Shown: piece by piece, positions 17,801 through 62,354 of the stretch | Layout of the letters: every line of letters begins with the position of its first letter | How positions within the stretch are numbered: position 1 is the first letter of the stretch | Source of the DNA: Candidatus Multivoradales bacterium | GTDB lineage: Bacteria; Acidobacteriota; Thermoanaerobaculia; Multivoradales; J023 | Direction of reading: 5' to 3' | Length of the DNA stretch: 64,000 nt | NCBI GenBank assembly: GCA_965248925.1 | Contig: CBDFLE010000006.1 | Coordinates: forward strand, 3,264,001 to 3,328,000 | Made by a program: the position numbers and the translations under genes | The notes under the pieces: generated by a model | Database searches by the model: none | Told to the model about the DNA's origin: nothing | What the model saw: only the letters and a program-made list of their open reading frames with translations

Positions 17801-17977
17801 TACCCACGATGTGCGGGTGACCTAGGTAGGCGACCGGCGGGTGGTGCGCCGGGGAAGGGTGGGCACCTCGGTGGCTGGCAACGGCAGCGTCAACCAAAGC
17901 CAGTTTGACACCGAGGAGATCTACGATGGCTACGGCCGGCTGGTGGGGGTAGCCGAGCCCACCGGTGGCCTGGTGGC
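17801..17977 (+). repeat. Degenerate copy of RHS-internal segment 19451..19627
   Basis: Ungapped alignment at offset 1650, 19 mismatches in 177 nt by manual count; in-frame TAC->TAG at 17823. Confidence 0.9.
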
Positions 17978-20900
17978 CTGGGCATACGAGGACTACAAGT
18001 TCTACACCAACGGTGAACCGCTGAGCGGTCCGGGGCGTCCGCGGCTGGAGCTTCAGCTCTCCTCAGGGGTCAGCTCGCGGCGCCTGATCAACACCGATGG
18101 TGGCGAGTTGGGCAAGTGGACCTACACCCAGGTGGTGACCTCGGAGAGTGGCAACCCGCCGGTCGAGTCGATCACCACGGTCCGGGCACCCTCGGGTCAG
18201 CGGACGATCCACTTTTTCTCGACCTATCAGGGGGGCACCACCACGGTCGCCACCGCCAACGAACTCGATCTGGGGCTGCCCTTCACGCCGAAGAACCCGG
18301 TGGGTGAGCGGCGCCTGTCGCAGCGGGTACTCTCTGCCGGCGGCACCGACCTGCGCCGGGTCGAGGTCGGCTATCAGCGCGATGCCGCCGCGCCGCTGGG
18401 TGAGGTGCAGATCCGTGGTCAGCTCAACCCCGCGGCGCGCGATCGTAATCAGAGAATGTTCGTCACCCGCACGATCTACAAGGACGACGGCAACCGGTAC
18501 GCCGAGGACCGCATGTCGGGCTATGACGGCGTCGGCCACTATCGGCGCACGGTGCGCAAGGACAATTTCGACGGGGTGAAGACGCGCAATCAGTTCACCC
18601 GCTACCATCCCGGCGGCATGCCCAACACCGGCCAAGCGTGGATCCTCGGCACCTACACTTACCAGACCACCGTCGACACCGGCGGCGCCACCTTGCGCCG
18701 TGACACCTGCTTCGATTCCGCGACTGGCTTTTTGAAAGTGGAGCGGCTGCGCCAGGCCAACCCCTCGCCAAGTTCGGACGACGTGGTGCGCGCGATGACC
18801 TACGTCCGCGATGCCGCGAGGAAGATCGAAACCGTGGTCGAGCGCCATTTCGGCGGAGATACGGGCGCCGTGGCGGCGCCCGGCGACGTCTGCGCGCTGA
18901 ATCCGGCGCACAACACCAGCCACGTTGCCCTGGAGCACAAGTGGCAGTACGGCTCGGGCCGCTCAAGCCAATACTTGAAACTCGATGGCAGCCGCTTCCC
19001 CTTCTTCGAAGTGCTCCAGACGGTGGACCGGAACACCGGCCTGATCAGTGCGAGCACCGACCGCGCGGCCTTAGTCACCGCTCTCAAGTACGACTTTCTT
19101 GGCCGGCTAACCGAGTCCAAACCCTCCGCCGGCCACGGCGCCTGGACGCTCTACGCCTACACCAACACCTTCAACTCGGCCGGCCCCAAGGTCGAGATCC
19201 GTCAGATCGACCGCGATACCAGCGCCGCGTTGGCCAAGCGCGAGCTACGTTTCGACGGTATCGGCCGGTTGATCTTGGAGCGCCAGCGCCAGCCCGGCGG
19301 GCTGTGGGCCAACCGGGTGACCGCCTACAGCGGCGAAGGCTGGACCCAGAGCGAATCCGAGTGGTACCGCTCCGCGGGCACCGTCCACCGCACTTATTTC
19401 GATCACGATGCCTTTGGCCGGGTGACCAAGATCGTGCCGCCAGACGGCGCTACTCACGATGTGCGAGTAACCTACCTCGGCGACCGGCGGGTGGAGCGCC
19501 GGGGAAGGGTGGGCACTTCAGTAGCTGGCAACGGCAGCGTCAACCAAAGCCAGTTTGCCACCGAAGAGATCTACGATGGCTACGGCCGCCTGGTGCGGGT
19601 ATCCGAGCCCGCGGGCGGCCTGCTGGCGACCTACTTCTACGACTCCGGCGATCGGTTGAAACAGGCTAATCTGAAGGGCGGAAGTACCACCCAGATTCGC
19701 ACCTTCGAGTACGATGGTCGAGGCTTTCTCCTCTCCGAGAATCACCCCGAGGCACAGCAGATCAACTACAGCAACTACGATTCTCGCGGCAAGGCCCGCC
19801 GCCGGGTGCAGGCCGGCGTCGACCTGTCCTACACCTACGATCGGGCCGAGCGCCTGACCTTGGTGCGCGAAGGTTCGGCTGGCAATAGGGTGCTCAAAGA
19901 GCTGACCTACGCCACCACCAACGTGGGCAGCAACCGACGCCGCGGCAAGCTAGAGCGGGCGGTGCGCCACAACTACGTCTTCAGTCCCCTCCTCCCCGGC
20001 AAAGTGCTCGACGCGACCGTCACCGAGACCTACACCTACAAAGGCCGCGACGGCCGGGTCTCGGCCCGCCGCACCCGCGCCGAGGTCAACGGTACGCTGG
20101 TGACCGACTTCAACCAATCGTGGACTTTCGACGGCCTCGGCCAGGTGACCCAGCTGGGCTACCCGCGCTGCTCCGGCATCACCAACTGCCCCAATGTGGC
20201 AGCGCCCTCGCCCAACCGCAGCTTCACCCACGCCCAAGGCTACCTGGTGGCGGTGCCGGGCTACGCCAGTTCGCTGACCTACCATCCAAGCGGTATGATC
20301 GCCAACGTCGTGCATAGCAATGGCCTCACCGATGTTTGGGACGAAGATCTAGGCCGGCCCCGGCCGAGCCGGATCAGTGTCACCGGCACGGTAGCCGCCA
20401 GCTTGGGTGACCATAGTAATGACGGATCCGGAAACCTGGTCCGCCGCCGCTTTGCCGGCGTCTTCGACGATCATTACACCTACGACGGCTTGAACCGAAT
20501 CAAGGTCTTTGAAGACTCCGCCGGCGACCAGGGTTATCAATATGATCAGTTCGGCAATCTAACCGGCATCACCGGGGTCAACGGCCGCACCCTGGCCACC
20601 AATCGAGCCACCAACCGGCTCAGCGGCGCGGTGGTCTATCACGGTCGCGGCAACATCCTCGCCTGGGGCTCGCAGCTATACTCCTACGATGCTTTAGGCA
20701 TGATGAACACCCGCAACTATCCCGAAGACACCTACATCTACACCGCCGGCGAAGAGCGCCTGTGGACCTTCCACTGGCAGGGCTCCTTCGAGAGCCTGGT
20801 CGAGACCTGGACCGTCCGCGATCTCGACGCCAAAGTGCTGTCGATCTTCGAGAATCCCAAAGGCACCAATCCCTGGACCTTTCTCAAGGATTACGTCTAT

Positions 20901-21598
20901 CGCGGCGGCCAGCAGCTGGCACCGACACCGACTTGACGAGCCGCCAGTCGCGACAGCACTTCAGCCTCGACCACTTGGGCAGCGCTCGACTGACCACCGA
21001 TCGTAATGGTACGCCGATCTTCAGCCACAACTACTACCCGTATGGCGAGGAAGTTGGTACCGCTTTTGATTCGGAGCAGCTCAGGCTTACTGGCCATGAG
21101 CGGGACTTTGCTGGCGGGACTTATGATCTCGACTACATGCAAGCTCGACATTGCAGTTCGCAGTTGGGGCGGTTCTTGATTGTTGATCCGGCGGCCTCTT
21201 CCAGAAAGGGCATTCCCCAGAGCTGGAATCGGTTTCTCTACGCTCAGAGTAACCCTCTGAACCTAGTTGATCCGGACGGAGGGAGAGTGAAACAACCCAA
21301 AGACAAACGAAGTCAGAGGGCGATTGAGGCGGTCCGATCTACAACTGACGGGGAGGCCGGATTCCAGATCCCGGAGCGCGCCAGTGATATTTACTCTTTC
21401 TCAAGACGAGACTCTGTTATCTCACCAGTTGACCGAATAAGAGCAAGAACTTTCCAGAAAGTTATCCTTAATAAAACAGGTCACTTTTCTCCAGCATACG
21501 AGGTCCAAGATGGGGTCCTTGTTTGGCTATCTGAAGGTGACATGTTTCTCGATTTTGGAGTGGTGGACAGTGCTGATCAAGCAGAGTCGCCGCGCTGA
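17841..21598 (+). pseudogene. RHS/YD-repeat protein with RHS core; 5'-rearranged, frameshifted near 20920, C-terminal tip truncated
   Basis: Many YD repeats (YDGYGRL, YDFLGRL, YDGLNRI, YDQFGNL). Second frame has DHLGSARL, YYPYGE, TGHERD, GRFLIVDP, WNRFLYAQSNPLNLVDPDG. Confidence 0.88.
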
Positions 21599-26846: not shown

Positions 26847-27494
26847 TTGGCGCAGATCTTCCCGCAATGGGTCAACCGGGTGCCGTTGGTCGGCATCGGG
26901 TCTGTAGGAGTGCTGGCGCTGGTGGCGACAGCTGGCATTTGGTATTTCTTTTCGCCTGAGTTCACCGATGTGGGCTACCAGCCGGAGCAGCCGGTGCCCT
27001 ATAGCCATGCCCTGCATGTCGGTGAGTTGGGGTTGGACTGCCGCTATTGCCATTCCAACGTGGAGCGCGCCGCGATTGCCTCGGTGCCGCCCACCCAGGT
27101 GTGCATGAATTGCCACCAGTTGGTGGCGCGCGACAGCGAGAAGTTGGCGGTGATTCGCGATAGCTTCGCCACCGGCAAACCGGTCGAGTGGGTGCGAATC
27201 CACAATGTTCCGGACTATGCCTACTTCGATCACAGCATCCACATTGGTGCCGGCGTGGGCTGCTCGTCCTGCCACGGCGACATCGCCGAGATGGAAGTGG
27301 TGCGGCAGGTCAAACCGCTGAGCATGGGCTGGTGCCTCGACTGCCACCGCGATCCCGCACCCCATCTGCGGCCCCGCGACCAGATCACCAACACCAGCTG
27401 GACGGCACCAAGAGATCAGGCCCAATTTGCCGCCCAAGCGATCGACCAGCAGCAGCTGGCGCCGCCGGAGGATTGCAGCGCATGTCACCGTTGA
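26847..27494 (+). CDS. actA: Alternative complex III pentaheme cytochrome c
   Basis: MAQIFP start, TM anchor, QPVPYSHALH, five CxxCH motifs. Confidence 0.9.
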   Translation: MAQIFPQWVNRVPLVGIGSVGVLALVATAGIWYFFSPEFTDVGYQPEQPVPYSHALHVGELGLDCRYCHSNVERAAIASVPPTQVCMNCHQLVARDSEKLAVIRDSFATGKPVEWVRIHNVPDYAYFDHSIHIGAGVGCSSCHGDIAEMEVVRQVKPLSMGWCLDCHRDPAPHLRPRDQITNTSWTAPRDQAQFAAQAIDQQQLAPPEDCSACHR

Positions 27495-30400
27495 GCGATC
27501 GTGAGCGGCCGGCCGCTCAGCAGCAGAGCAGTCCGGAAGCAATCGCCTCCGGCGCCAGCAAGCACTTCGGCCCGGAGGCGGTCGCCTCTGGCAGCAGCAA
27601 GCACTATTGGCGCAGCCTGGGTCGGCTACTCGATTCACCGGCTACCGATCCTGCCAGCTGGCCTCCCGGACACGAGTTCCCTGAGGGCGCCTCCGAGCCG
27701 CCCGACGCGCTGAGTCGGCGCACCATGCTGGGTCTGATGGGTTCCTCCTTCGCCCTGGCTGGCTTGGCGGCCTGCCGGCGGCCAGTGGAGACCATTGTAC
27801 CTTACGTGCAGGCGCCGGAGACGGTGATCCCAGGCATCGCTCGCCATTTCGCCACCACCCTGACCTCGGGCAATAACGCCGTCGGCGTGGTGGTCGAGAG
27901 TCACGAGGGGAGGCCGACGAAGATCGAGGGCAACGAACTCTACCCGGGATCAGCTGGGGCGGCGGATGCGTGGACTCAAGCCTCGGTGCTGGGGCTCTAC
28001 GATCCGGATCGATCGCGGGTGGTACGCCACCGCGGTGCGGCCCCGGCCGCTGGCGATCACGGTGCGGACAGTCATGGCGCCGACTCCGCGTCGCCCAAGG
28101 ACGATAGTCTGCAGCTGTCGACCTGGCAGGACTTCGAGACTTTTTGGGCCGAGCGAGCGGCTGAGTTCGAGCGCACGGGGGGCGCCGGTTTGGCGGTGCT
28201 GAGCGCTGCCTACTCGTCGCCGACCCTGGCGCGGTTGCGCGGTCGCTTCAGCGCCCGTTTCCCCCAAGCTCTGTGGGTGACCTACGAACCCGCCGGTGAC
28301 GACAACAGTTTTGCCGGGGCCAAACTGGCCACCGGCACCGACGCACGGCCGGTTTATCACCTGGAGCGGGCACGGGTGGTGGTCACCCTCGACGCCGACT
28401 TGCTGGGTACCGAAAGCGGTGCGGTGGGCCACGCCAAAGGTTTCGCCGCCGGGCGGCGGATGGGCAGTCCCGAGGACGAGATGAACCGCCTTTTTGCGGT
28501 CGAAGGCGTCTTGTCGCTGACCGGTTCGATGGCCGATCATCGGCTGCGGCTGAGGAGCAGTCAGATCGGGGGTTTCGCTGCCGCCCTGGCCGCTGCCGTC
28601 GGCGCCGACGTGACGGCGCCGCAGCTCGCTGGTGAGCCGGCGGCGCGGTTGGCAACCATGGCGGCCGACCTGCGCCGCGCTGGCAGCGCCGCACTGGTGG
28701 TGGCCGGTCGTCGGCAGCCACCAGCGGTCCATGCCTGGGCTCTGCTGATCAATCAGACCTTGGGTTCATTGGGCAACACGGTAGAGCTGTTTGGGCTCAA
28801 AGATTCGGCTTATGGGGGTCCATTGGCCCTCGCTCCGCTGGCTACCGCGATGCAGGCTGGTGAGATCGACACGCTGGTGATGCTGGATAGCAATCCAGCT
28901 TACGACGCACCGGCGGATCTCGGTTTTGCCGCGGCGCTCGCAGCGGTTCCCCATGCCGTTCACCTGGGGCTCCATGTTGACGAGACCGCTCGGGCCTGTG
29001 AATGGCAGCTACCGCAGAGTCATTATTTGGAGGCTTGGGGCGACGCGCGCGGGGCCGAGGGCACCCGCTCGGTAGTGCAGCCGTTGATCGCGCCGTTGCA
29101 TGACAGCCGCAGTGCGGTCGAGCTGTTGGCGTTGCTGGCCGGTGAGTCCGAAACCGTGGGCTACACCCTGGTGCGGGCCAGTTGGAGTGAGGCCGGGGTC
29201 GGTGATGTTGCTTGGCGCAAGCTGTTGCACGATGGTCTCGACAGCGCCGCCGGTGGTGCCGCCTTGAGTGCCACGGTCACGGTCGCTGATGGCGCCCTGG
29301 ACGAGACGGTCTCCAGCGCCGGGTTGGAAGTTGATTTCCTGGTCTCCCTCAGCGTGGCTGATGGCCGCTTCGCCAACAACGCCTGGTTGCAAGAGCTGCC
29401 CGATCCGGTGTCCAAACTGGTCTGGGACAACGCCCTCTTCATCAGCCCCGGAACTGCTGCTGAGCAGGATTTGGCAACGGGTGACCGAGTCCGAGTTAGC
29501 CAGGGCGATCTGGCCATCGAGGCGCCGATCTTCGTCCTGCCGGGTCTGGCCGATGGCACCTTGGCGATCGAACTTGGCTTCGGCCGTCAGGCCGCTGGGC
29601 GGGTCGGCGACGGGGTCGGAGTCGATGCTTATGCTCTGCGCACGGTGGCGGCACCGTGGACTGTCGGCGGAGTACAGCTGAAGAAGATCAGCGGCCACCA
29701 AGAATTGGTCCAGACCCAGGAGCACGGCTCGATGGAGGGGCGCCCGCTGGTGCGCGAGAGCACCCTCGATGAATACCGAGCCCATCCCCATTTCGCCAGG
29801 GAGATGGTCGAGAGGCTGCCGCGGTCGCAGCTGTTCCCAGATTTTGACTACAGCGAAGGTCCCCAATGGGGCATGTCGATCGACCTCAACTCCTGCACCG
29901 GTTGCAACGCTTGTGTGGTGGCTTGTCAGGCGGAGAACAACATTCCGGTGGTCGGCCGCGACCAGATCAACCGTGGCCGGGAAATGCACTGGCTGCGGAT
30001 CGACCGCTATTTCGCTGGAGATCTCAGCGATCCCGAGGTGGTGTTCCAGCCGATTCCTTGCATGCACTGCGAGAATGCCCCCTGCGAGCAAGTCTGCCCG
30101 GTGGCCGCCACTGTGCACGATCGCAATGGCATCAACGCGATGGTCTACAACCGCTGTATCGGCACTCGCTACTGTTCGAACAACTGTCCTTATAAAGTGC
30201 GTCGATTCAATTTCTTCAACTACACCAAGGACACCCCCGAGCTGGTCAAGATGGCGATGAATCCGGATGTCTCGGTACGCTCGCGCGGGGTGATGGAGAA
30301 GTGCTCCTACTGCAACCAGCGGATCAATGAGGCGCAGATCGTCGCCAAACGTGCCGGACGGCCGCTGGTCGATGGCGATATCCAGACCGCTTGTCAGCAG

Positions 30401-30574
30401 ACCTGTCCCACCGACGCGATCGTCTTTGGCGATATTCGCGACGCTAACAGCCAGGTGACGGCGCGCAAGGCTCAGGAGCGTGACTACACGGTGCTCGAGG
30501 AACTCAACAATCGGCCGCGCACCACCTACTTGGCCAAGCTGCGCGACCCGAACCCCGATTGGGGCACGGCTTGA
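27482..30574 (+). CDS. actB: Alternative complex III subunit B (molybdopterin-oxidoreductase-like + FeS domain)
   Basis: YWRSL, Tat motif SRRTML, EGRPTKIEGN, FANNAWLQELPDP, CTGCNACVVAC, CMHCENAPCEQVCP, CIGTRYCSNNCP. Track start 27188 overlaps actA. Confidence 0.93.
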   Translation: MSPLSDRERPAAQQQSSPEAIASGASKHFGPEAVASGSSKHYWRSLGRLLDSPATDPASWPPGHEFPEGASEPPDALSRRTMLGLMGSSFALAGLAACRRPVETIVPYVQAPETVIPGIARHFATTLTSGNNAVGVVVESHEGRPTKIEGNELYPGSAGAADAWTQASVLGLYDPDRSRVVRHRGAAPAAGDHGADSHGADSASPKDDSLQLSTWQDFETFWAERAAEFERTGGAGLAVLSAAYSSPTLARLRGRFSARFPQALWVTYEPAGDDNSFAGAKLATGTDARPVYHLERARVVVTLDADLLGTESGAVGHAKGFAAGRRMGSPEDEMNRLFAVEGVLSLTGSMADHRLRLRSSQIGGFAAALAAAVGADVTAPQLAGEPAARLATMAADLRRAGSAALVVAGRRQPPAVHAWALLINQTLGSLGNTVELFGLKDSAYGGPLALAPLATAMQAGEIDTLVMLDSNPAYDAPADLGFAAALAAVPHAVHLGLHVDETARACEWQLPQSHYLEAWGDARGAEGTRSVVQPLIAPLHDSRSAVELLALLAGESETVGYTLVRASWSEAGVGDVAWRKLLHDGLDSAAGGAALSATVTVADGALDETVSSAGLEVDFLVSLSVADGRFANNAWLQELPDPVSKLVWDNALFISPGTAAEQDLATGDRVRVSQGDLAIEAPIFVLPGLADGTLAIELGFGRQAAGRVGDGVGVDAYALRTVAAPWTVGGVQLKKISGHQELVQTQEHGSMEGRPLVRESTLDEYRAHPHFAREMVERLPRSQLFPDFDYSEGPQWGMSIDLNSCTGCNACVVACQAENNIPVVGRDQINRGREMHWLRIDRYFAGDLSDPEVVFQPIPCMHCENAPCEQVCPVAATVHDRNGINAMVYNRCIGTRYCSNNCPYKVRRFNFFNYTKDTPELVKMAMNPDVSVRSRGVMEKCSYCNQRINEAQIVAKRAGRPLVDGDIQTACQQTCPTDAIVFGDIRDANSQVTARKAQERDYTVLEELNNRPRTTYLAKLRDPNPDWGTA

Positions 30575-30630
30575 GCAGCTCGCGACGGTCGAACTAGACT
30601 GGCGAACATAGGTTGATCGAGGAAGACTCC

Positions 30631-31218
30631 GTGGTGCGAAAACTGACCCTCAATTTCGTTGTTTTGGCTTTGCTGCTCGGTTCGCTGAGCGGTTGTATGC
30701 GTGGCAGTACGTCTCCACGGGCGCCGATCCATCCGAATCCGAACATGGACCTGCAGCCCAAATATCGGGCGCAGGCGGCCAGCGCCTTCTTCTACGATGG
30801 GGCCACAATGCGACCGCAGGTGGCCCACACCGTGGCCCGTGGCGAATTGCGTGAGGACACCGCATTGTGGGATGGGGTCGATGCCGAGGGTAGTTTCGTG
30901 ACCACCAACCCCTTGCCTGTCGATGCCGAAATCCTGGCCCGCGGTGTCGAGCGGTATCAGATTTACTGCACTCCGTGTCATGGCGACAATGGCAAGGGTC
31001 GGGGAGCGCTTTACGACCGCGCTGGGGTGGAAGCCGGCGACCTTCATGAACCGCGGATTGTCGAAATGCCCGCCGGGCAACTCTTCGATGTGATCACCAA
31101 TGGCGTTGGCCTGATGGCGGGCTATCGCTATCCGATCCCTTCCGAGGACCGCTGGGCGATCATCGCCTATGTGCGGCAGTTGCAGGGTGCGCAGCCGCAG
31201 AGTGAAGGTGGATCCTAG
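30631..31218 (+). CDS. actE: Alternative complex III monoheme lipoprotein
   Basis: Lipobox LSGC, NMDLQPKY, TVARG, CTPCHG, DRWAIIAYVRQLQ. Confidence 0.85.
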   Translation: MVRKLTLNFVVLALLLGSLSGCMRGSTSPRAPIHPNPNMDLQPKYRAQAASAFFYDGATMRPQVAHTVARGELREDTALWDGVDAEGSFVTTNPLPVDAEILARGVERYQIYCTPCHGDNGKGRGALYDRAGVEAGDLHEPRIVEMPAGQLFDVITNGVGLMAGYRYPIPSEDRWAIIAYVRQLQGAQPQSEGGS

Positions 31219-31263: not shown

Positions 31264-33120
31264 TTGAGCAAGAAGCCGCCGCTGATCCTGGTACTGCTGG
31301 CCGCCGTGTCGCTGGTCGCTGTCGTCGTGGGAATCGGCAAGTTGGCACTCAGCGCCGACCAAAAGCTGTCCTACAAGTCGCCGCTCAAGGAGCGGACGGC
31401 GATCGAAGTGCCGACGCCGCACGAAGTTGCTCAGCAGGAGCAGGCCGAGGCCGAGACCGAGCGCCTTCTGACCCAGTCCTATGAGGAAGACGAATACCGC
31501 GCCTTCCCGGTGATCGGTAGCCGCACCGCGATCTGGGTGGTGGCGCAGCTGCACCTGCTCTTCGCCGCCTTCGTGCTGGCGGTGCCGATTTTCGCCGTCA
31601 TCATCGAGTTCATTGGCTACAAGAACGGCGATCCGCGCTACGACAAGCTGGCCTACGAGTTCACCAAGCTGCTGTCGGTATCGTTTTCCTTCACCGCCAG
31701 TCTTGGGGCGATGCTGCTCTTCATGCTGGTCGCTCTGTACCCGAAGTTGACCGGCTATTTGGGGCACGTGTTCTCGCCGACCTTCCTGCCCTATGTGTTG
31801 TTGTTCTTCGCCGAGGCCGGCTTCCTCTACAGCTACTACTACGGCTGGGGCAAGTTCTCGCCGCGCACTCATCTCTTCCTCGGCGTGATGCTCAACGTCG
31901 TCGGCACCTGCATCATGCTGATCGCCAATGCCTGGCTGACCTTCATGATGACCCCGGCCGGGGTGGCCGAGTCGGGAGCGCTGATCAGCACCTGGGACGC
32001 GGTGACCAACTACACCTGGATGCCGATCAACATCCACCGAGTGATCGCCAATATTGCCTATGGCGGCTCGATCGCGGCGGCTTACGCGGCGTTCAAGTTC
32101 TTGTCGGCGAAGACCGATGAGGAACGAGCACGGTACGACTGGATGGGCTACATCGGCAACTTCGTCGCCATCTGTGGCCTGCTGCCGCTGCCCTTCGCCG
32201 GTTATTGGCTGGCGTCTGAGATCTACGCCTACTCACAGACCATGGGCCTGACCATGATGGGTGGCGCCTTTTCCTGGTTGTTCATCATTCAGGCGGTTCT
32301 GATCGGCGCCCTCTTCTTGTTTGCCAACTGGTACCTGTGGACCGGCATGAAGAGGATTCCCGGTGCCGAGCGTTTCCGCCCCTACATCAAGTATCTGCTG
32401 ATCGTCATCACCCTCTGCTTCCTGGTCTGGGCGACACCGCGTTCACCGATCACCACTGGTGAGGAAGTGCAGGCGATGGGCGGCTCGTCCCATCCGGCCC
32501 TCGGTTACCTGGGGGTGATGTCGGCCAAGAACACTGCCGTCAACCTGCTGATCTTGACCACCTTCATCAGTTTCTTGCTCTACCGTCGCAGTGGTCGCAT
32601 GCCGACCGTCAAGTGGGCCAAACGGGGCAACCAGGTGCAATCGGCGATCTTTATCGCCGCGGCGGGAGCAGTGTTGTTCATCGGCGTCTTGGGTTACTTC
32701 GTCGAAGCCAAGGTGAGGATCGGTCTGTCGCGGCCGCAAGTCGGTTCGGTTTTGCTCGCCATGCTGTTGGTCACCCTGATCGACGTGTTCATGATGCGCA
32801 AGGCGAAGACCACCGAGACCGATTGGGGCAAGATCTCGCCAATCTCCCAGTATCTGCTGATCGGCTTGGCAGTGACCTTCACTTGGCTGATGGGCCTGAT
32901 GGGCTATTTGCGGGCAGGATTGAAGCAGCACTGGCATGTCTACGGCATCGTCCGCGACACTTCGCCCGACGCCTTCACGCCGACCTTGGGCTACGCCACC
33001 CAAGTGGTGTCGGCGACGGTGTTGATCTTCTTCGCCATGATCGGTTTCATTTTCTGGCTGGCTAGCCTGTCGGAGAAGAGACCCTGGGCGCCAGCGTCAA
33101 TATCTGGTACCAAGAGTTAG
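31264..33120 (+). CDS. Cytochrome bd-like oxidase subunit I (CydA-like, extended)
   Basis: AQLHLLFAAF, FFAEAGF, INIHRVIAN and a C-terminal GYLR...WHVYG motif; many TM helices; no cydB beside it. Confidence 0.8.
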   Translation: MSKKPPLILVLLAAVSLVAVVVGIGKLALSADQKLSYKSPLKERTAIEVPTPHEVAQQEQAEAETERLLTQSYEEDEYRAFPVIGSRTAIWVVAQLHLLFAAFVLAVPIFAVIIEFIGYKNGDPRYDKLAYEFTKLLSVSFSFTASLGAMLLFMLVALYPKLTGYLGHVFSPTFLPYVLLFFAEAGFLYSYYYGWGKFSPRTHLFLGVMLNVVGTCIMLIANAWLTFMMTPAGVAESGALISTWDAVTNYTWMPINIHRVIANIAYGGSIAAAYAAFKFLSAKTDEERARYDWMGYIGNFVAICGLLPLPFAGYWLASEIYAYSQTMGLTMMGGAFSWLFIIQAVLIGALFLFANWYLWTGMKRIPGAERFRPYIKYLLIVITLCFLVWATPRSPITTGEEVQAMGGSSHPALGYLGVMSAKNTAVNLLILTTFISFLLYRRSGRMPTVKWAKRGNQVQSAIFIAAAGAVLFIGVLGYFVEAKVRIGLSRPQVGSVLLAMLLVTLIDVFMMRKAKTTETDWGKISPISQYLLIGLAVTFTWLMGLMGYLRAGLKQHWHVYGIVRDTSPDAFTPTLGYATQVVSATVLIFFAMIGFIFWLASLSEKRPWAPASISGTKS

Positions 33121-33148: not shown

Positions 33149-33880
33149 ATGAAGATACCGCTCACAGTGCAGATGCTGCTGATCGCCGTCGGCCTGACCA
33201 GCTTCTACATGATGCTCGGCCAGGCGGTGCCGCAGAACGAAGTCCATCCGCCGGAAGTCATCGAGTTGGCCGACGATCTGTCGACCGCCGAGATGGTCGA
33301 CATCGGCAAGGGGATTTTCGACGGCAAGGGAATCTGCGTTACTTGCCACAATGGCTCGGCCCGATTTCCCGACCTGGCGGGCATCGCCACCCGCGCCGGC
33401 AGCCGCATTCCCGGCTACACCGCCCTCGACTATCTGGCCGAAACCCTGTACGAGCCCGACATCTTCATCGTCGAGGGCTTCACCAAGGGCATGCCAAAGA
33501 TCAACAAACCGCCCATCGGTCTGACCGACGACGAGATCTTGGCGGTCATCGCTTATCTGCAAACTCTCGGTGGCCAGGCAACTGTGACCATGGAGACTTT
33601 GACCGCCTACAACGGCGGCGTCCGTGGCGGTGGCGAGGCGGTGGCGGCTGGCGAAGAAGCGCTGGTGACTGCCGCCGATAGCGCTCCACCCTCGCCGTTG
33701 GATACCCACGGCTGTGCCAGTTGTCACGATGGCTCGCAGGCCAGCCCATTCGATGGGATCTCCGGCCGTTTGGACCGCTCACAGCTGCTGTTGGCGATCG
33801 CCGATCACCCGCCGGGTGGCAACACCGAGAACGTGACCGTGGCGCAGGCGCAAACCCTGGCCGACTTCCTAGCGCAATGA
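33149..33880 (+). CDS. Membrane-anchored diheme c-type cytochrome
   Basis: CVTCH and CASCH; YLAETLYEP..FIVEGF. Confidence 0.85.
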   Translation: MKIPLTVQMLLIAVGLTSFYMMLGQAVPQNEVHPPEVIELADDLSTAEMVDIGKGIFDGKGICVTCHNGSARFPDLAGIATRAGSRIPGYTALDYLAETLYEPDIFIVEGFTKGMPKINKPPIGLTDDEILAVIAYLQTLGGQATVTMETLTAYNGGVRGGGEAVAAGEEALVTAADSAPPSPLDTHGCASCHDGSQASPFDGISGRLDRSQLLLAIADHPPGGNTENVTVAQAQTLADFLAQ

Positions 33881-33890
33881 GAGGCGTCGG

Positions 33891-34700
33891 ATGAATTGGA
33901 TTGTCTTATTGCTGTTCGCCGCCTCCCTGGTGGTTCTGCGTTTCCTGCGGGTGAAGATGCTGGTGTGGTTGGCTGCCTGGTGGGTCGGCACCTTCATCGT
34001 TTTCCGCTATGGCTTCACAGTGCCTATTCCGGTTTCGGTGCTGAAGATCTACATGGGGATCATCACCTTTTCGTTGCTGGCCTACGTGCTCGCCGATGGT
34101 GAACGCATCGATAGCGTTTTTGGTCCGGTCACCGCCTTCATGACCGAGCGTCGCTTTGCTCCCCACCTGGCATTGGTGGTGTTGGCGCTGCCGGCGCTGG
34201 CGGCGTTTCAGATCTACGGTCAGATGACCTCCACGCCGCTAGCCCCGAGCTTTGGACGTACGGTGCACCCGGCGCCGCCGGAAGATATCGACGTCCATGG
34301 CACCACCTACCCGGTGTCGACCATGGACAATCCCTTCCGTGGGCTCGAAACCAGCGATCCCGAGGCCTTCAAACTCCGGGTCGAGCACGGTCGCGAGGTC
34401 TACTACAGCAATTGCCTGTGGTGCCACGGTGATTTGATGGCCGGCGCCGGCATGTTCGCCCACGGGCTAAATCCAATCCCGACCAGTTTCGAAGATCCCA
34501 ACACCATCGCTGCGCTGCGCGAAGCCTTCCTTTTCTGGCGTATCGCCAAGGGCGCTCCTGGGCTACCGGAGGAAGGCGGACCTTGGGATTCGGCGATGCC
34601 GGCGTGGGAAAACTTCCTCAGCGAAGAGGAAATTTGGGACGTAATCATCTTCCTCTACGACTTCACCGAGTACCGCCCACGGGCAGTGGGGCTGCACTGA
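33891..34700 (+). CDS. Membrane c-type cytochrome (N-terminal TMs + monoheme)
   Basis: CLWCHG, FLFWRIAKG, SAMPAWE. Confidence 0.85.
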   Translation: MNWIVLLLFAASLVVLRFLRVKMLVWLAAWWVGTFIVFRYGFTVPIPVSVLKIYMGIITFSLLAYVLADGERIDSVFGPVTAFMTERRFAPHLALVVLALPALAAFQIYGQMTSTPLAPSFGRTVHPAPPEDIDVHGTTYPVSTMDNPFRGLETSDPEAFKLRVEHGREVYYSNCLWCHGDLMAGAGMFAHGLNPIPTSFEDPNTIAALREAFLFWRIAKGAPGLPEEGGPWDSAMPAWENFLSEEEIWDVIIFLYDFTEYRPRAVGLH

Positions 34701-36469
34701 TGCGCTGGCGTGTGGTGCTTACCTTCGCTCTGCTGCTGGTTGCCCTGGCTGGATCGGCGAGCGCCGACCTGGAGCAGGGCAAAGCGGTCTATGACAAGTA
34801 CTGCGGCCACTGTCACGGCGCCGAGGGTGACGGCCAGGGGGTGGCGGCGCCTTTCCTGAAGCCGGCGCCGCGCAATTTCACCAGCGGCAAGTACAAGATC
34901 CGGCACACCCCGACTGGCTACATGCCCACCGATGAGGATCTGATTCGCTCGGTTGCGGTCGGCTTACCTTACACCTCGATGCCAGGTTTTGCGGACGCCT
35001 TGAGCGACGCCGAGATCGCCTCGGTGGTGGAATATCTCAAGACCTTTTCTGCCGACTTCGAAGATCCCGAAGCCTTCGCCGAGCCAATTCCGATCCCTGA
35101 GCCGCCGCCCTTGACCGCCGAGTCGGTAGAGCGTGGCACGGAACTCTACGTCGAGACCGGCTGTGGCGCCTGTCATGGCGAGGTCGGCTTGGGCGATGGT
35201 AGCTCGGCTCCGACCCTGGTCGACGATTGGGGTGTACACATCAAGGTGGCCGACCTGTCGCTGCCGTGGACCTTCCGTGGTGGCAGCACCCGCAAAGACA
35301 TTTTCCGTACCATGTCGAGTGGCTTCAACGGCACCCCGATGCCAGGCTTTCACGGCGCCCTGCCGCCGGAGGATATCTGGGGCATTGTCGACTACATCGT
35401 GTCCTTGTCCGACGGCGCCAGCGAAGCGGCCTACGACAATCTGGTGCGAGCGGTGGGCTACGATGGTGACCTCGACCTCGCCTTGGGCGATGAGCTATTC
35501 GCCGCTGCGCCGCCGGCAATATTCGCGGTCATTGGCCAGATCATCGAGCCTGGGCGAAACTTCTATCCGGCGACCACCGCGGTGCAAGTTCAGGCGGTCT
35601 ACACACCGTCCGAGATCGCCTTCCGCATCAGCTGGCACGACATGCGTGCCGAGACCTCGGGTAGCAACGCACCAGACCTGCCGGCACCCGCTTGGCTCGA
35701 AGAACTCGCCGGCCAAAGTGCGGGCGGCGCCACAGATGCCGACGATGAAGGCGGTGACTTCTGGGGCGAAGAAGAGTCAGCCGACGATGAAGGCGGTGGC
35801 TTCTGGGGCGAGGAAGAGGTCGGCGGCGACGATGGTGATGCCGACTTCTGGGGTGAAGAAGAGGAGGGTGGCGAAGGTGACTTCTGGGGCGATGACGACG
35901 ACTCGAGCGGCACCCCGGCTGTCACGGGCCCCAGCAACGAGTTTTCCGATGCCATAGCCATCCAGTTCCCACAGACTCTGCCAGAGGGGATTCGCAAGCC
36001 GTACTTCTTGTTCGGCGACGCGCAGAACCCGGTCGAGCTGTGGTTTGCCGACCTGGGTAAGGCTAGCGGTCAGACTTACGTCGGACGGGGTAGTGTCGCC
36101 GTTACTCCGAGCGACGGGATTCAGCCCCAAGTTAATGCCAAATACGAGCAGGGCGAGTGGTCGGTGATTTTCAAACGCCAGCGCGAGGTGCGCGGCGGTA
36201 TTTCTTTCGCCCCCGATACGTTTGTACCGATCGCCCTGTCGGTGTGGGATGGGTTCAACCGCGAGCGGGGCAATCGCCGCGGCCTGACCCGTTGGTACTA
36301 CCTCTACATGGAGCCGCTTGAGCGGCCTTCTCCGTTAGGCCCGATGGCCAAGGCTGCCTTGGGCGTGTTGATTTTCGAGCTGCTACTCATCGGCCTGGTG
36401 CGTTTCGTGCGCCGGCGCCGTCAACAAGACTTCACCCTGGACGGTGATGCCGTCCCGTCCACCAGCTAG
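34700..36469 (+). CDS. Diheme cytochrome c + ethylbenzene-dehydrogenase-gamma/DOMON-like domain, C-terminal TM
   Basis: CGHCHG, CGACHG; FRISWHD, FSDAIAIQFP, KPYFLFGD, WSVIFKR, VWDG..RERG; TGATG coupling at 34700. Confidence 0.8.
   Translation: MRWRVVLTFALLLVALAGSASADLEQGKAVYDKYCGHCHGAEGDGQGVAAPFLKPAPRNFTSGKYKIRHTPTGYMPTDEDLIRSVAVGLPYTSMPGFADALSDAEIASVVEYLKTFSADFEDPEAFAEPIPIPEPPPLTAESVERGTELYVETGCGACHGEVGLGDGSSAPTLVDDWGVHIKVADLSLPWTFRGGSTRKDIFRTMSSGFNGTPMPGFHGALPPEDIWGIVDYIVSLSDGASEAAYDNLVRAVGYDGDLDLALGDELFAAAPPAIFAVIGQIIEPGRNFYPATTAVQVQAVYTPSEIAFRISWHDMRAETSGSNAPDLPAPAWLEELAGQSAGGATDADDEGGDFWGEEESADDEGGGFWGEEEVGGDDGDADFWGEEEEGGEGDFWGDDDDSSGTPAVTGPSNEFSDAIAIQFPQTLPEGIRKPYFLFGDAQNPVELWFADLGKASGQTYVGRGSVAVTPSDGIQPQVNAKYEQGEWSVIFKRQREVRGGISFAPDTFVPIALSVWDGFNRERGNRRGLTRWYYLYMEPLERPSPLGPMAKAALGVLIFELLLIGLVRFVRRRRQQDFTLDGDAVPSTS
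35735..35905 (+). repeat. Four in-frame acidic (D/G)FWG(E/D)x repeats
   Basis: DDEGGDFWGEEES ADDEGGGFWGEEEV GGDDGDADFWGEEEE GGEGDFWGDDDD; first two units are a 42-bp tandem duplication. Confidence 0.9.
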
Positions 36470-36484
36470 AGCTGGGAGAAACGA

Positions 36485-38620
36485 ATGTACGACAACATTT
36501 ACGTACCCGTCGATAACTCGGACTTTTCAAATCGGGCGGTGCACAATGCCCTGGCTCTCGGCAAGTCTTTCGACTCCAAGCTCACCGGTTGCCACGTCTA
36601 CGCGGCGCGGATGCACGACTACCGTTTCAAGCAAATGGAGTTCACCTTGCCCGAGGAGTACCTCGAAGAGAACGAGCTTGAGCGCCAGCGCAAAATCCAC
36701 GACAGCCTGATTACCATGGGGCTGGAGTTGATCTCCGACTGCTACCTCTCCAGCATGGAGCAGCTGTGCCAGGCACAGCAAGTGGCGTTCGAGAAGAAGA
36801 TGATGGATGGCAAGCACTCGACCGAGATCTTGAAAGATCTGGCCGACTCCGACTACGACTTGGTGGTGATGGGAGTGCTAGGCATCGGTCGCACCCGCGA
36901 CAGCCAGATCGGCTCGGTGTGCCAGCGAGTCACCCGCGAGGTTGATCGCGACATCTGGGTGGTGAAGCACCTGCCAGAGAAGGGCGAGTCCGAGCGCGAC
37001 ACCATCTTGGTGGGGGTCGATGGCAGCCCTCAATCCTTCGGCGCTTTGCACACCGCGATCGACCTGGCCAAGCGTTTCGACAAGAAGATCGAGCTGATTT
37101 CGGTCTACGACCCCTACCTGCACTACGCTGTGTTCAAGGGCATTGTCGAGGTTTTGACCGACAAGGCGGCCAAGGTGTTCCGCTTCGAAGAGCAGAATCA
37201 GCTGCACGAAGAAGTCATCGACACCGGCCTGGCCGAGATCTACCAGTCGCACCTCAACGTCGCCGAGAAGATGGCGCGGGAAGCCGGTGTCGAGGCCACC
37301 AAGACTCTGCTCGACGGCAAGGCGTTCCAGAAAGTGCTCGACCATGTGCGCAAAGTCGAGCCCTGGCTGTTGGTGGTGGGCCGCAAAGGCGTGCACGCTG
37401 AAGAAGACGAGACTGGCCTCGGTTCGAACACCGACAACCTGTTGCGTTTGTGTCCTTGCGACATCCTGCTGTCGACCCGTGAAGAGGTGCCGGAACTCGA
37501 CATCAAGGCCGAAGAATCGATCCATTGGACCGACGAAGCCGAAGCGCGGATGGGCCGGGTGCCGCAGCAGGCCAAGGGCATAGCCCGCACCGCCATCCTG
37601 CGCTTGGCGATCGAAAAAGGCCACTCGGTGGTGACCAGCGACCTGGTGACCGAGGCGATGGACCGCTTCATGCCCAAGAATGCCGCCGCGCGCACCGAGA
37701 AGCTGGCCGAAGCCTTGGCCTTCGAACGGGCGCGTGAGACCTCCGCCGCAATTTGCAAGAAGTGTGGGGTTACCGCCAAAGATGCCAAACCGGTCAAATG
37801 CACCGTCTGTGACGGCACTGAATTCGAGGCCATTACTTCCGAGATGATCGATCAGATCGTCGCTGCCGAGGGCGGCGCGGAAGAGGAAACCACCTACGAT
37901 GGCCGCAAGCTGCGCTGGACCCAGGAATCGCGCAAGGCCCTGCGAATGCTGACCGACGCCTACCAGCGCCGCCGCGCCAAGGCGCGGATCGAGAAGTCGG
38001 CCCGCGGCAACAAGCTGAACACCATAACCCTCGAATTCGCTCGTCGCTTCATCGAGGAAGAAGGCGGCGTGCTCTACGAGGTCGCCGATGCTCCGGTGCC
38101 GAACGCGGCCGACAAGGCCCGCGCCACCGCCGCGCCTGAAGCTGAAGCCGTGGTCGACGATCCCGAGCTCAAGATGCTCGGCCGCGACCGCAAGAACGTG
38201 CCTCTGCTATCGCGCCTCGACTATAGCGAGCGCGCCATCGAGAGGATCTTGCGAGTGCCCGGTGGCTTCATGCGCGACCGCACCCAAAAGCGAATCGAAG
38301 AACTCGCCAGCGAGCGCGGTTCGACACGAATCGACTTCGCTCTGATCGAAGAGGGCATCAAATTCGGCATGCAGCAGATGGAAGCCATGCTCGGCCAGCA
38401 CGGCGGCGCCTCGCCGGAGATGAAGAAGCACGACGCCGGGGTGGCGGCGCAGGGCAAGGAAGCCAACGGCCAGCAGGCGGCGAGTGGCGAATGCCCGGTC
38501 GATCTCGAAGCCGAGGCCAAGGCCAACGGCTCCGCTGAGCTGGCCCTCAACGAGGTCGGCGTGATGTCCGAGTTGGAGAAGAAGCGGCGTCAGCTAGGTG
38601 CCGAGCCTAGCGATGCCTGA
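36485..38620 (+). CDS. Tandem universal-stress-protein domains + PCP_red-like repeats + rubredoxin-like Cys motif
   Basis: IYVPVDNS / ILVGVDGS, LVVMG..G, LGSNTDNL; WTDEAEARM.RVP, WTQES, YSERAIERI.RVP.GFMR; CKKC...CTVC. Confidence 0.85.
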   Translation: MYDNIYVPVDNSDFSNRAVHNALALGKSFDSKLTGCHVYAARMHDYRFKQMEFTLPEEYLEENELERQRKIHDSLITMGLELISDCYLSSMEQLCQAQQVAFEKKMMDGKHSTEILKDLADSDYDLVVMGVLGIGRTRDSQIGSVCQRVTREVDRDIWVVKHLPEKGESERDTILVGVDGSPQSFGALHTAIDLAKRFDKKIELISVYDPYLHYAVFKGIVEVLTDKAAKVFRFEEQNQLHEEVIDTGLAEIYQSHLNVAEKMAREAGVEATKTLLDGKAFQKVLDHVRKVEPWLLVVGRKGVHAEEDETGLGSNTDNLLRLCPCDILLSTREEVPELDIKAEESIHWTDEAEARMGRVPQQAKGIARTAILRLAIEKGHSVVTSDLVTEAMDRFMPKNAAARTEKLAEALAFERARETSAAICKKCGVTAKDAKPVKCTVCDGTEFEAITSEMIDQIVAAEGGAEEETTYDGRKLRWTQESRKALRMLTDAYQRRRAKARIEKSARGNKLNTITLEFARRFIEEEGGVLYEVADAPVPNAADKARATAAPEAEAVVDDPELKMLGRDRKNVPLLSRLDYSERAIERILRVPGGFMRDRTQKRIEELASERGSTRIDFALIEEGIKFGMQQMEAMLGQHGGASPEMKKHDAGVAAQGKEANGQQAASGECPVDLEAEAKANGSAELALNEVGVMSELEKKRRQLGAEPSDA

Positions 38621-60128: not shown

Positions 60129-60569
60129 CTAGCAGCGCTGGTAATCAGGCCGCCACTCACGGATCTTCTTCTTGATCTCCGTCCGCTGGTGAATTCCCTG
60201 GTCGAGGACCTCACGTACCAAGTCGGCGAGTTCGCCGTCGCTGGCGAAGCGTAGGGCCACCATTTGGCTGACCGACAGTTCGTCGATTCTGCCGCGTAGA
60301 TCCTCGGGGAAGAGGGCGGCCATGCGTTGGCGCTCTTCGAGGCGAATCAGGCGATCTTGAACCTTGAGGGCGAAAACCCGCGCATAGTAAGTGGTGCCGG
60401 CAACAGCGATCACGAATAGCACGGCGATCGCAGTGCTCAAATCCGGCCGTCGTATCAAGTTCCACGCCGCCCACAGGAGAGTGACGACGATCAGGCCCGG
60501 AGTCAGGTAGTGGTAGCCTGGGACCATCTTCGAGTGATTGGCAAGAGTTTGGGTGCGTTTTTCCGACAA
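60129..60569 (-). CDS. DUF6526-like membrane protein
   Basis: Q..ANH....YH, QDRLIRLEE, ALRFASD.EL, IK..I..W..D..R. Confidence 0.7.
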   Translation of the reverse strand: MSEKRTQTLANHSKMVPGYHYLTPGLIVVTLLWAAWNLIRRPDLSTAIAVLFVIAVAGTTYYARVFALKVQDRLIRLEERQRMAALFPEDLRGRIDELSVSQMVALRFASDGELADLVREVLDQGIHQRTEIKKKIREWRPDYQRC

Positions 60570-60715: not shown

Positions 60716-61525
60716 TCAGCCCCAGAAGTCGTCCTCTTCACCAGCCTCAAGCAGCGCTTCTTGCTGCTCGGTCATCCAAGCGTCGTATTCATCCTGCTCG
60801 TGAATGGTGACAAAACCGCGCATCCGGTAGTGACCCAGACCGCAAAGCTGGGAGCAGTTGATCTCGTAGGTGTAGGTGTCGTTGCCTTTGATCTCGCGCA
60901 TCTCGGCGGTGGTGACCGTCGGCACGAACCACACCGGGAAGCGCATCCCAGGCATCGCGTCTTGCTTGACCCGCATCTCGGAGATAGCGAACGAGTGGAT
61001 CACGTCCTTGGTCGACAAATGGATCAGCACTGGCTTGTCGACCGGCAGGTGTAGCTGATTGATGGTGGTGACGTCGTCGGCTGCCGCCGGGTCGTCACGG
61101 TCCAGGCCCAGAGGGTTGGACTCCTCGTCGACCAGCTCCGGCGCGGTGCGTCCGAACTCGCCATCGGGGCCGGGATAGTGGATGTTCCAAGCAAACTGCT
61201 GCGCCACCACCCGCACCACTTCGGCCTCATCCTCAGAGGGCAGGGCATCGACCCGTTCTGAGTAGAGCGGGATGGAGAAGCCGATCAGGATGACTACCTC
61301 GACAATCGCCACACCAACTTCGGCGTAGCTCGAGAGGTGGCTTTGCAGACCCTTGTAGTCGGCCTTCGGCTGCCGCTTCTGGCGAAAACGGAGCAGGATG
61401 TAGACAAAAAGGGCACCCCAAACGATGAATAGAGTGAACATCAGCCAATGCACCAGGACGTTGACTTGGTCGAGAGCCGCGCCGTGTTCCGAGGCTACGT
61501 GGGGAAGTCCGAGAAACCGGTTCAT
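60716..61525 (-). CDS. coxB: Cytochrome c oxidase subunit II
   Basis: QQFAW, DVIHSF, KQDAMPG, CuA motif CSQLCGLGHYRM. Confidence 0.95.
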   Translation of the reverse strand: MNRFLGLPHVASEHGAALDQVNVLVHWLMFTLFIVWGALFVYILLRFRQKRQPKADYKGLQSHLSSYAEVGVAIVEVVILIGFSIPLYSERVDALPSEDEAEVVRVVAQQFAWNIHYPGPDGEFGRTAPELVDEESNPLGLDRDDPAAADDVTTINQLHLPVDKPVLIHLSTKDVIHSFAISEMRVKQDAMPGMRFPVWFVPTVTTAEMREIKGNDTYTYEINCSQLCGLGHYRMRGFVTIHEQDEYDAWMTEQQEALLEAGEEDDFWG

Positions 61526-61542: not shown

Positions 61543-61806
61543 TCAGCTATGCGGTGCGGGATCGCTGTCCGGCGCGGGAGATTCCGCCCGGCGCAGTTGG
61601 CGTCGCCGCAGGACGACGACGGCCGCCAGGCCCCCGCCGATGGTCAGATAGGTCAAGCCAGCCATGAACAGAATCGACAGATTGACGCCCTGCGCCATCG
61701 GCGAGTCGCTCTCGCCAAAGCACACAGGGCAGCCCATTGCCGGCGCCGCGAGGGTCGCCAGCAGTAGGCAGAGGGTCAGCCGGATTGCAAGTCGTGGGTG
61801 GCTCAT
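61543..61806 (-). CDS. Small exported/membrane protein with CPVC motif
   Basis: Signal peptide, CPVCFG, one TM; inside the cox operon. Confidence 0.65.
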   Translation of the reverse strand: MSHPRLAIRLTLCLLLATLAAPAMGCPVCFGESDSPMAQGVNLSILFMAGLTYLTIGGGLAAVVVLRRRQLRRAESPAPDSDPAPHS

Positions 61807-62334: not shown

Positions 62335-62354
62335 TCTCTCGCTCTCCTTCACGT

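Follow-up and report, generated by a model that had tools for sequence, protein, structure and literature searches.

A likely docking tag: an acidic–aromatic peptide motif shared by a multidomain cytochrome and cytochrome oxidase subunit II in Acidobacteriota

We analysed a 64,000-nucleotide stretch (the window) of the genome of a Candidatus Multivoradales bacterium (Acidobacteriota; assembly GCA_965248925.1, contig CBDFLE010000006.1, positions 3,264,001 to 3,328,000), in which two respiratory genes 25 kb apart encode the same short acidic–aromatic peptide, here called the tag. One of them, at 34700..36469 on the forward strand, encodes a 589-aa cytochrome with four internal copies of the peptide; the other is coxB (60716..61525, reverse strand), which encodes the 269-aa CuA-containing subunit II of an A-type haem-copper oxidase and ends in it. 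Across the sequences compared below the tag can be written as an acidic run followed by D, G or N, then a hydrophobic residue or proline, then W or F, then G, A or the C-terminus. The genome is referred to as G000, and its context past the window end was covered by a further region, L196 (G000:C6:3327001-3343000).

The cytochrome consists of a signal peptide, two class-I haem-c domains (two PF00034/PF13442 matches), a haem-b-type EB_dh beta-sandwich and a C-terminal membrane helix. The EB_dh profile PF09459 matches it at 45.8 bits (E 1e-11; cut-off 33.3), placing it within that family, and the narrower profile TIGR03477, 'DMSO reductase type II haem b subunit', scores 71.6 bits, under its cut-off of 169.85. 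An AlphaFold2 model built with 56 homologues has a mean pLDDT (predicted local distance difference test score) of 83.3, with a helix at residues 546-581 and beta-strands at 248-313 and 418-537. Inserted in the EB_dh domain is an acidic segment of about 68 residues (residues 345-412; 35732..35935, +) with a net charge of about -28. Its residues 345-395 and 397-412 have pLDDT below 50, so the tag units lie in a predicted disordered loop. The original prediction, made from the letters of the window, had described four (D/G)FWG units here, expanded in part by a 42-bp tandem duplication. Both points hold: the units occupy 35756..35890 on the forward strand, namely DFWG at D353-G356 (35756..35767), GFWG at G367-G370 (35798..35809), DFWG at D382-G385 (35843..35854) and DFWG at D394-G397 (35879..35890), and Tandem Repeats Finder places an array with a period of 42 bp, or 14 aa, behind units 1-3 (35738..35863, +; 2.9 copies, 81% matches, score 155). 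When the 76-aa insert was searched with phmmer in 1.84 billion representative proteins, no match appeared, an uninformative result for so short and low-complexity a query. A paralogue of the dihaem-c part of the protein (44% identity over 222 aa) is found elsewhere in the genome inside a 577-aa frame (G000:C6:2014842-2015507, -).

CoxB belongs to the COX2 family (PF00116, E 6.4e-10, 39.4 bits against a cut-off of 22), while the equivalog profile TIGR02866 gives 129.7 bits, under its cut-off of 147.7. Its translation shows the CuA ligand pattern H...CxxxCGxxHxxM as HSF...CSQLCGLGHYRM, and C224, C228, H232 and M235 do not vary among 52 CoxB sequences, nor does W268 in the tag. Neither a CxxCH motif nor a cytochrome c Pfam match was found in the protein, which is therefore not of the caa3 type. 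The chain ends 20 residues past its last helix with EAGEEDDFWG-COOH (60719..60748, -), exactly the ending, followed directly by the stop codon, that had been read from the window beforehand. Both c-type haems and CuA domains are periplasmic in these families, so both tags should face the periplasm. A second CoxB of the same genome (L001, G000:C6:2425321-2428527) is of the caa3 type, with a CNTCH motif and without an acidic–aromatic tail; a SCO-like gene adjoins it, and its frame stops about 15 residues past the haem motif, which may reflect either a short domain or a frameshift.

Conservation of the tag was followed in the 120 best homologues of each protein. A tryptophan occurs in the last three residues of 119/120 CoxB homologues, 53 of which terminate in FWG; the exception ends DPFR. 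Of the cytochrome homologues, 118/120 have one or more [FIVL]W units in an acidic context (mode 4, range 0-7). A few of the counted units fall outside the insert, among them EEDIWxIVDY around residue 230 and VDLWF around residue 465. These 120 proteins differ in the length of the insert and in how many units they have. In the 56-sequence alignment W355, G356 and W396 never vary, conservation of F395 and G397 is at least 90%, and the flanks are variable. The background frequency of the motif was taken from the 92,947 open reading frames (ORFs) with 50 aa or more in a six-frame translation of the 7.98-Mb genome. The pattern [DE]{2,}.{0,3}FWG has seven matches there, three of them in the cytochrome and CoxB, and a looser acidic context with [FIVLM]WG has nine, five of them in these two proteins; in ORFs with 150 aa or more, 4.65 million residues in total, the plain tripeptide FWG is seen 121 times. 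We take these counts to mean that within this genome the motif is confined to the pair. Two outcomes had been named beforehand as counting against the motif, its loss in orthologues and its occurrence at background frequency, and neither was found. The only other ORF of the genome with an FW-type acidic C-terminus is one of 90 aa ending EKIDQDFWQ (G000:C6:2173123-2173396, -). Two DUF1801 ORFs in related loci (L033 and L038, ending REDDSFW and REDDAFW) were taken as chance matches, the DUF being unrelated to respiration.

The two tags occur together across genomes. We drew on a phylum sample of 401 genomes, in which 28 genomes beyond G000 have full-length cytochrome matches and about 80 have CoxB-family matches at E <=1e-73. 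From these, 78 CoxB regions were taken, giving 77 readable genes, along with 32 cytochrome regions (G049 and G152 were not counted), and the cytochrome was called from a full-length match with E <1e-100 or from matches to both halves. Cytochrome and CoxB tail are both present in 23 genomes and both absent in 51. The cytochrome occurs without the tail in two genomes, where CoxB ends SNPFM and ADPFQ, aromatic and with a single acidic residue, and the tail occurs without the cytochrome in one, G282, whose weaker cytochrome-like gene encodes a DDWG/DDFGDFF insert. These three discordant genomes are borderline cases. Both states are found within each of the GTDB families f6 and f81.

Where the tag changes its form, it often does so in both proteins. 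Nine genomes from a single genus combine a DDFF(N/D/Q)(F) ending of CoxB with several (G/D)FFG units in the cytochrome. Tails in NPF or DPF have counterparts of the same kind: SNPFM with QNPFAEE in G359, PDPFR with DNPFG and EDPFA in G298, ADPFQ with ANPFG and ADPFA in G146, and TNPFQ with ADPFA in G178. Likewise (D/A)AWN tails accompany DEWG and DVWG units (G284, G364, G340), a DADVWGS tail in L025 accompanies GDVWGD and DDVWGD, and FW tails accompany FWG units in G000, G005, G129 and G372.

Genomic linkage was examined in 80 related loci fetched using CoxB. The cytochrome operon is convergent with the oxidase operon and lies at most 10 kb downstream of coxB in seven of them (L007, L010, L012, L013, L018, L025 and L032), and in two further loci a neighbour gene of the cytochrome operon appears at the locus edge. 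The earlier proposal that the motif links two respiratory modules is supported by this neighbourhood, by the co-occurrence and by the parallel flavours. In one of these loci, L032, from a Binatia-type metagenome-assembled genome (MAG), the CoxB frame (about 8684-9566) continues for 26 residues beyond DVWG (DVWGLGRAG...), which points to loss of the stop codon, or to faulty assembly, exactly at the tag.

In other phyla the tag is carried by a third, unrelated protein, an 8-haem cytochrome c of about 1000 aa whose gene stands beside those of the oxidase and of a cupredoxin, p259 (described below), and which bears the tail of the local CoxB. In the Hydrogenedentota MAG of locus L023 the 8-haem cytochrome has 1015 aa and is encoded after split cytochrome b genes (PF13631/PF00033, then PF00032) and before p259 and the cox genes; it ends EEDFWADE...AAEDDFWGD, and the CoxB of this locus ends SAASDDFWGD. 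A bipartite tail of the local CoxB is found on the 8-haem cytochrome in ten Marinimicrobia-type loci (L040, L042, L044, L050, L058, L063, L069, L071, L074 and L078). The paired ends of cytochrome and CoxB are, for example, EEDDWGDDW and DDDDWGDDW in L050, EEDDWGDDEW and DDDWGDDEW in L058, and EEDWGDEDW and EEDDWGDEDF in L078. The bd-like gene that accompanies the EB_dh cytochrome in G000 was found in none of five Marinimicrobia-type genomes, which are incomplete MAGs, and one of the five has an EB_dh protein without the acidic insert. Because these genomes bear tags and gave no bd-like match, incomplete as they are, the tag is not tied to the bd-like complex itself, and a receptor within the bd-like operon is unlikely for the same reason. 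Judged from these sequences, the tag goes with whichever cytochrome is encoded alongside this type of oxidase. Several Marinimicrobia-type loci have a second cox cluster (CoxB-CoxA-CoxC-CoxC) near the tag-bearing one, about 2-6 kb downstream of coxB in L037, L044, L050, L059 and L078 and upstream in L049.

Replication slippage easily makes acidic, glycine-rich segments, and the resemblance between the two proteins might on that account be a coincidence of low-complexity sequence. The probability of this is negligible, as it is contradicted by the conservation in both homologue sets, by the co-occurrence counts and by the same tails in a third family.

The tag has the properties of a short linear motif, as had been proposed. 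It lies in a segment of low pLDDT in the cytochrome and at the extreme C-terminus in CoxB, it has a conserved core in variable flanks with a variable copy number, and it recurs in unrelated proteins of one pathway (CoxB tail, EB_dh loop and 8-haem cytochrome c tail). We consider it likely, from the sequence evidence, that the tag is a functional docking tag of some kind. A segment acting through charge, as a non-specific polyanionic antenna, a cation-binding (Ca2+/Mg2+) segment or an entropic spacer, would account for the strong negative charge of the insert and of the Marinimicrobia tails (-8 to -10) and for the free variation of copy number and spacing. It leaves aside that conservation is highest at the aromatic residue (W355 and W396 in the cytochrome, W268 in CoxB), and charge alone does not explain the tag, because the lineage flavours FF and NPF are copied in both proteins. 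RTX-type Ca2+-binding repeats are tandem 9-residue GGxGxD units, whereas the repeat here has a period of 14 aa and an aromatic conserved core, and does not belong to that type. We regard an action through charge as quite improbable.

A signal in biogenesis or quality control is a further way in which such a tail might be used; its reader would be a periplasmic chaperone, a factor that inserts cofactors or a protease that processes C-termini. Periplasmic PDZ proteases and sensors read C-terminal aromatic tails, and subunit II is C-terminally processed in some bacteria, both of which speak for such a role. The internal units of the cytochrome, with acidic residues after them, present no free C-terminus to a reader of this kind, the tagged proteins carry different cofactors (CuA, and haems b and c), and the caa3-type CoxB of the same genome, which has the same maturation need, is without the tag. 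This makes a biogenesis signal very improbable.

The operon of the tag-bearing cytochrome, of which it is the last gene, runs on the forward strand. It begins with an ActB-like subunit (27188..30574; Fer4 families and a weak Molydop_binding match), a cofactor-less molybdopterin-like part fused to a 4Fe-4S part, with QrcC/QrcB-like NCBIfam matches under their cut-offs. An ActE-like monohaem cytochrome c lipoprotein follows (30613..31218; PF13442), 45% identical to the cytochrome beside the genome's alternative complex III (ACIII)/caa3 cluster, and then a 618-aa cytochrome bd-like (CydA-like) membrane subunit (31264..33120), which matches PF01654 over residues 86-333 and is the sole PF01654 match found in the genome. 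Two further cytochromes c, a membrane-anchored one of 243 aa (33149..33880; PF13442/PF00034) and a membrane cytochrome c of 269 aa (33891..34700; PF13442), precede the tag-bearing gene. On its 3' side a gene at 36485..38620 (+) encodes a 711-aa protein with two universal-stress-protein and two PCP_red domains, which has the same position in L007, L013, L018, L025 and L032; a radical-SAM/SPASM protein encoded upstream of ActC (L196:10613-11872, -) likewise has a PCP_red domain. Elsewhere in the window, at 17841..20936 (+), lies a gene for a 1031-aa RHS-repeat protein unrelated to the tag.

The oxidase operon reads, 5' to 3' on the reverse strand, ActC (NrfD), ActD (PF11821), the ActF-like p400, p259, CoxA, CoxC, CoxD, p133 and CoxB, and the same order is found in related loci. 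CoxB is thus encoded by its last gene. Inside the window are subunit I, coxA (62979..64000, PF00115, continuing past the window end), subunit III, coxC (62355..62957, PF00510), subunit IV, coxD (62032..62469, PF03626) and, between coxD and coxB, p133 (61543..61944), a small membrane protein with a CPVC motif and one helix whose position is conserved in many of the 80 loci; p133 was rejected as a tail-specific partner, as it occurs in tail-less loci too. Between p400, an ActF-like 400-aa protein without a Pfam match, and p259 stand a regulator and an oppositely oriented 431-aa ORF (L196:4403-5698, +, = G000:C6:3331403-3332698), which lies between the regulator and the ActF-like gene, has no Pfam match and shows a Cys-rich C-terminus and a run of about 20 glycines (...GGGGGGGGFGGGGGGGGGGIGC...). 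Directly downstream of coxB, a DUF6526 membrane protein is encoded at 60129..60569 (-); it occurs in none of the 80 related loci and is probably not part of the system.

Taken together, the two operons, 25 kb apart, divide between them genes for ACIII-like parts: the ActB- and ActE-like proteins are encoded with the cytochrome, and ActC (PF03916), ActD and the ActF-like protein with the cox genes. Neither operon encodes a pentahaem ActA, and three other cytochromes and the bd-like subunit are found in its place. The genome also holds a canonical ACIII beside a caa3-type oxidase, and a third ActB-like copy at 2.14 Mb.

From the conservation, the predicted disorder, the co-occurrence, the parallel flavours, the recurrence in unrelated cytochromes and the operon linkage we infer a set of binding steps and a direction of electron flow. 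The tag would be a portable acidic–aromatic motif displayed on flexible periplasmic segments of two electron-transfer partners. The first would be the output cytochrome of a quinol-side complex, here the dihaem-c/haem-b subunit of the ActB-like and bd-like complex and, in two other phyla, the 8-haem cytochrome c whose gene neighbours those of the oxidase; the second would be subunit II of an A-type oxidase without a fused cytochrome c domain. The tag-bearing cytochrome probably donates electrons to the oxidase. Both tags would bind one receptor, a mobile periplasmic carrier for which p259, encoded between the two modules, is the candidate, and the carrier would be kept close to donor and acceptor by the tags. 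Multiple copies on the donor would raise capture through avidity, and delivery of p259 to CuA would fall to the one copy at the end of CoxB.

p259 (G000:C6:3328851-3329552, -; 0.85 kb past the window end) is a secreted amicyanin-like cupredoxin of 234 aa. A profile match to amicyanin (E 5.7e-6) covers residues 81-170, and H124, H127, C162, H165 and M168, residues of the ligand type, are invariant, the last three in the type 1 copper ligand pattern C-x2-H-x2-M; no match to a Pfam or NCBIfam copper-protein family was found in the protein. Its AlphaFold2 model has a pLDDT of 91.6 and is closest in Foldseek to amicyanin, pseudoazurin and plastocyanin (probability 1.00, template modelling score on the target 0.55-0.73), with a CarboxypepD_reg-like beta-sandwich added at the C-terminus. 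The gene is present in 51/80 loci, mostly directly upstream of coxA and in several Marinimicrobia-type loci on the opposite strand, and it was found elsewhere in the genome in 5/5 genomes whose cox locus had none, one of them giving fragments only. The elements that remain constant across all tag-bearing lineages are the oxidase and p259. The C-terminus of p259 reads RPKKKKK where CoxB has a DDWGDDDW tail and, at the other extreme, KAAGAT where CoxB is tail-less, and the net basic charge of its last eight residues follows the acidity of the CoxB tail (Spearman 0.67, n=48, two frameshifted loci dropped, uncorrected for phylogeny). A complex of CoxB 88-269 with p259 23-234 was predicted with a score of 0.40 against 0.00 for the best control, with at least 78% contact agreement among runs and a partner pLDDT of at least 90. 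The score mark used is reached by 116/157 solved complexes and 2/215 mismatched pairs, and it is reached with a score of 0.60 or less by just 18 of the 157 solved complexes and by both of the mismatches that pass; the support from 0.40 is weak.

The original prediction had named a common basic partner, for example a soluble cytochrome c, a chaperone or a scaffold, and this part of it is not supported as worded: among the periplasmic proteins that the two operons encode, all acidic or neutral, none is strongly basic, and the best candidate, p259, has an isoelectric point (pI) of 7.85. The interpretation as a linear motif that joins two modules is supported. A common receptor outside both operons, such as a soluble cytochrome c or a scaffold, agrees with the parallel flavours, which need a shared receptor and do not name one, and with the weak support for p259. 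Such a protein would have to track the tag-bearing lineages across several phyla, and no candidate was found; we hold this improbable.

The receptor might also be part of the oxidase. Tail-bearing CoxB proteins have an extra loop of 12-13 residues (TVTTAEMRE..G..), in G000 TVTTAEMREIKGNDT at about residues 203-217 (60875..60919, -), immediately ahead of the Cys loop of CuA. By a hand count from the alignment of the 80 loci it is present in 63/65 tail-bearing and in 1/14 tail-less CoxB, three further tail-less proteins having a different, Cys-containing loop; in the phylum sample R210 of the loop is found in 89% of tail-bearing and 2% of tail-less CoxB. Since the loop tracks the tail, the tags could bind the oxidase itself, in a pocket for instance on the CoxB cupredoxin domain near CuA, where donor tags would dock to form a supercomplex and the CoxB tail would act in cis as a placeholder or gate while the donor is away. 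One pocket for both tags would make them evolve in parallel, two parties would suffice, and the oxidase is constant across Acidobacteriota, Hydrogenedentota and Marinimicrobia while the donor changes. However, L043 and L079 have the tail without the loop, L021 has the loop without the tail, and a tail that blocks the site of electron entry brings no obvious benefit. Docking on the oxidase seems to us rather unlikely.

Several observations weigh against the preferred arrangement, in which p259 reads tags on donor and acceptor. The co-occurrence, flavour and charge correlations are all uncorrected for shared ancestry. Flavours disagree in G345, G124 and G180 (CoxB DFW, cytochrome DPFA), in G266 (DDIFN and DVWG) and in G238 (SDIFR and SPFG, DPFA). 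The tag is present on just about 10/120 homologues of the 8-haem cytochrome, a frequency we would expect of a motif that is gained and lost in disordered tails. As to p259 itself, it is near-neutral overall, with a short basic C-terminal tail; its weak complex score may be inflated by likeness to solved cupredoxin complexes, and since it came with no list of contacts, that prediction does not show the tail to be involved. The gene is also present in six tail-less loci (L026, L047, L051, L054, L070 and L081), so p259 beside the oxidase does not need the tag. With these points counted, we propose p259 tentatively, from sequence and modelling, as a tag receptor that may be tethered near donor and acceptor, and we hold this a little short of an even chance.

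The binding of carriers to respiratory complexes is commonly attributed to charged patches of folded domains. In the present case that role seems to fall to a transferable peptide, found on donor and acceptor alike and varying by lineage. The tag may represent a general periplasmic address code, by which any cytochrome that gains it in a disordered loop or tail is wired through a tag-reading carrier to the oxidase; this wider reading is possible but doubtful, as is its corollary that receptor and tags drift together in each lineage through FW, FF, NPF and DDWGDDDW dialects. If binding were confirmed, such an address code would be new in category. Genomes with the tag come from Acidobacteriota, Binatia-type, Hydrogenedentota and Marinimicrobia lineages, largely uncultured groups that abound in soils and oceans. 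If the reading is true, the pairing of donor and oxidase would be predictable from sequence, which would be useful in genomes that, like this one, have several ACIII-like modules and two oxidases; the function of bd-like and ActB-like complexes would become accessible through a small, testable handle, a peptide and one cupredoxin; and the respiratory chains of several poorly studied phyla would have been rewired by gain and loss of a 4-8-residue peptide and not of folded docking surfaces.

Among known linear motifs, the closest parallels come from outside respiration. The tail of bacterial single-stranded-DNA-binding protein (SSB) is an acidic run with a hydrophobic or aromatic end that docks many partners. 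It resembles the tag as a disordered acidic handle with a terminal aromatic or hydrophobic residue and a free carboxylate, and it can fold back on its own protein; unlike the tag, it is cytoplasmic, acts in DNA metabolism and belongs to one hub, whereas the tag is periplasmic, occurs also in internal tandem copies and is borne by several proteins. The TolB box of group A colicins, a disordered Asp/Gly/Ser-rich peptide that binds a periplasmic protein through a Trp anchor, shares with the tag its Gly/Asp-rich composition, its periplasmic location and its Trp anchor; it serves toxin import and not respiration, and no sign of Tol proteins was found at the tag system.

Within respiration, mitochondrial cytochrome c is docked by the acidic 'hinge' subunit QCR6 of complex III together with cytochrome c1, and by an acidic surface of COX2. 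As proposed here, donor complex and oxidase both offer acidic elements to one mobile carrier, and QCR6 is a highly acidic, partly flexible accessory. The present case differs in that an identical short peptide with an obligatory aromatic anchor is found on both complexes, in a disordered loop or tail, and in that the candidate carrier is a cupredoxin and not a basic cytochrome c. Flavobacterium johnsoniae reportedly has a supercomplex of ACIII and cytochrome aa3. Such a supercomplex and the caa3 oxidases dispense with a freely diffusing carrier between an ACIII-type quinol:acceptor oxidoreductase and CuA, by a fixed assembly or by fusion of a cytochrome c domain to subunit II; this CoxB has no such domain and carries a tag of 7-10 residues.

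The bd-like subunit resembles the OR-N family, described as CydA-like subunits without a quinol site, with about 14 helices and in operons with other electron-transfer modules (bioRxiv 10.1101/2021.01.16.426971), and its own PF01654 match is confined to its first 250 residues; the available portion of that description makes no mention of a dihaem/EB_dh subunit, an acidic insert or a link to CoxB. Auracyanin is reported to be the periplasmic acceptor of ACIII in Chloroflexus and Roseiflexus (PMC10873879, PMC7439408). Like auracyanin, a blue copper protein encoded and working with an ACIII-type complex, p259 is encoded with ActC/ActD-like and cox genes; unlike it, p259 has an extra beta-sandwich and a basic tail, and the partners of auracyanin are not known to share a peptide tag. 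Full-text literature matches to the tag strings included none on respiration among the matches listed. Acidic docking and tethering of carriers are already known, and what appears, from the sequences, to be new here is that one peptide motif is copied on donor and acceptor.

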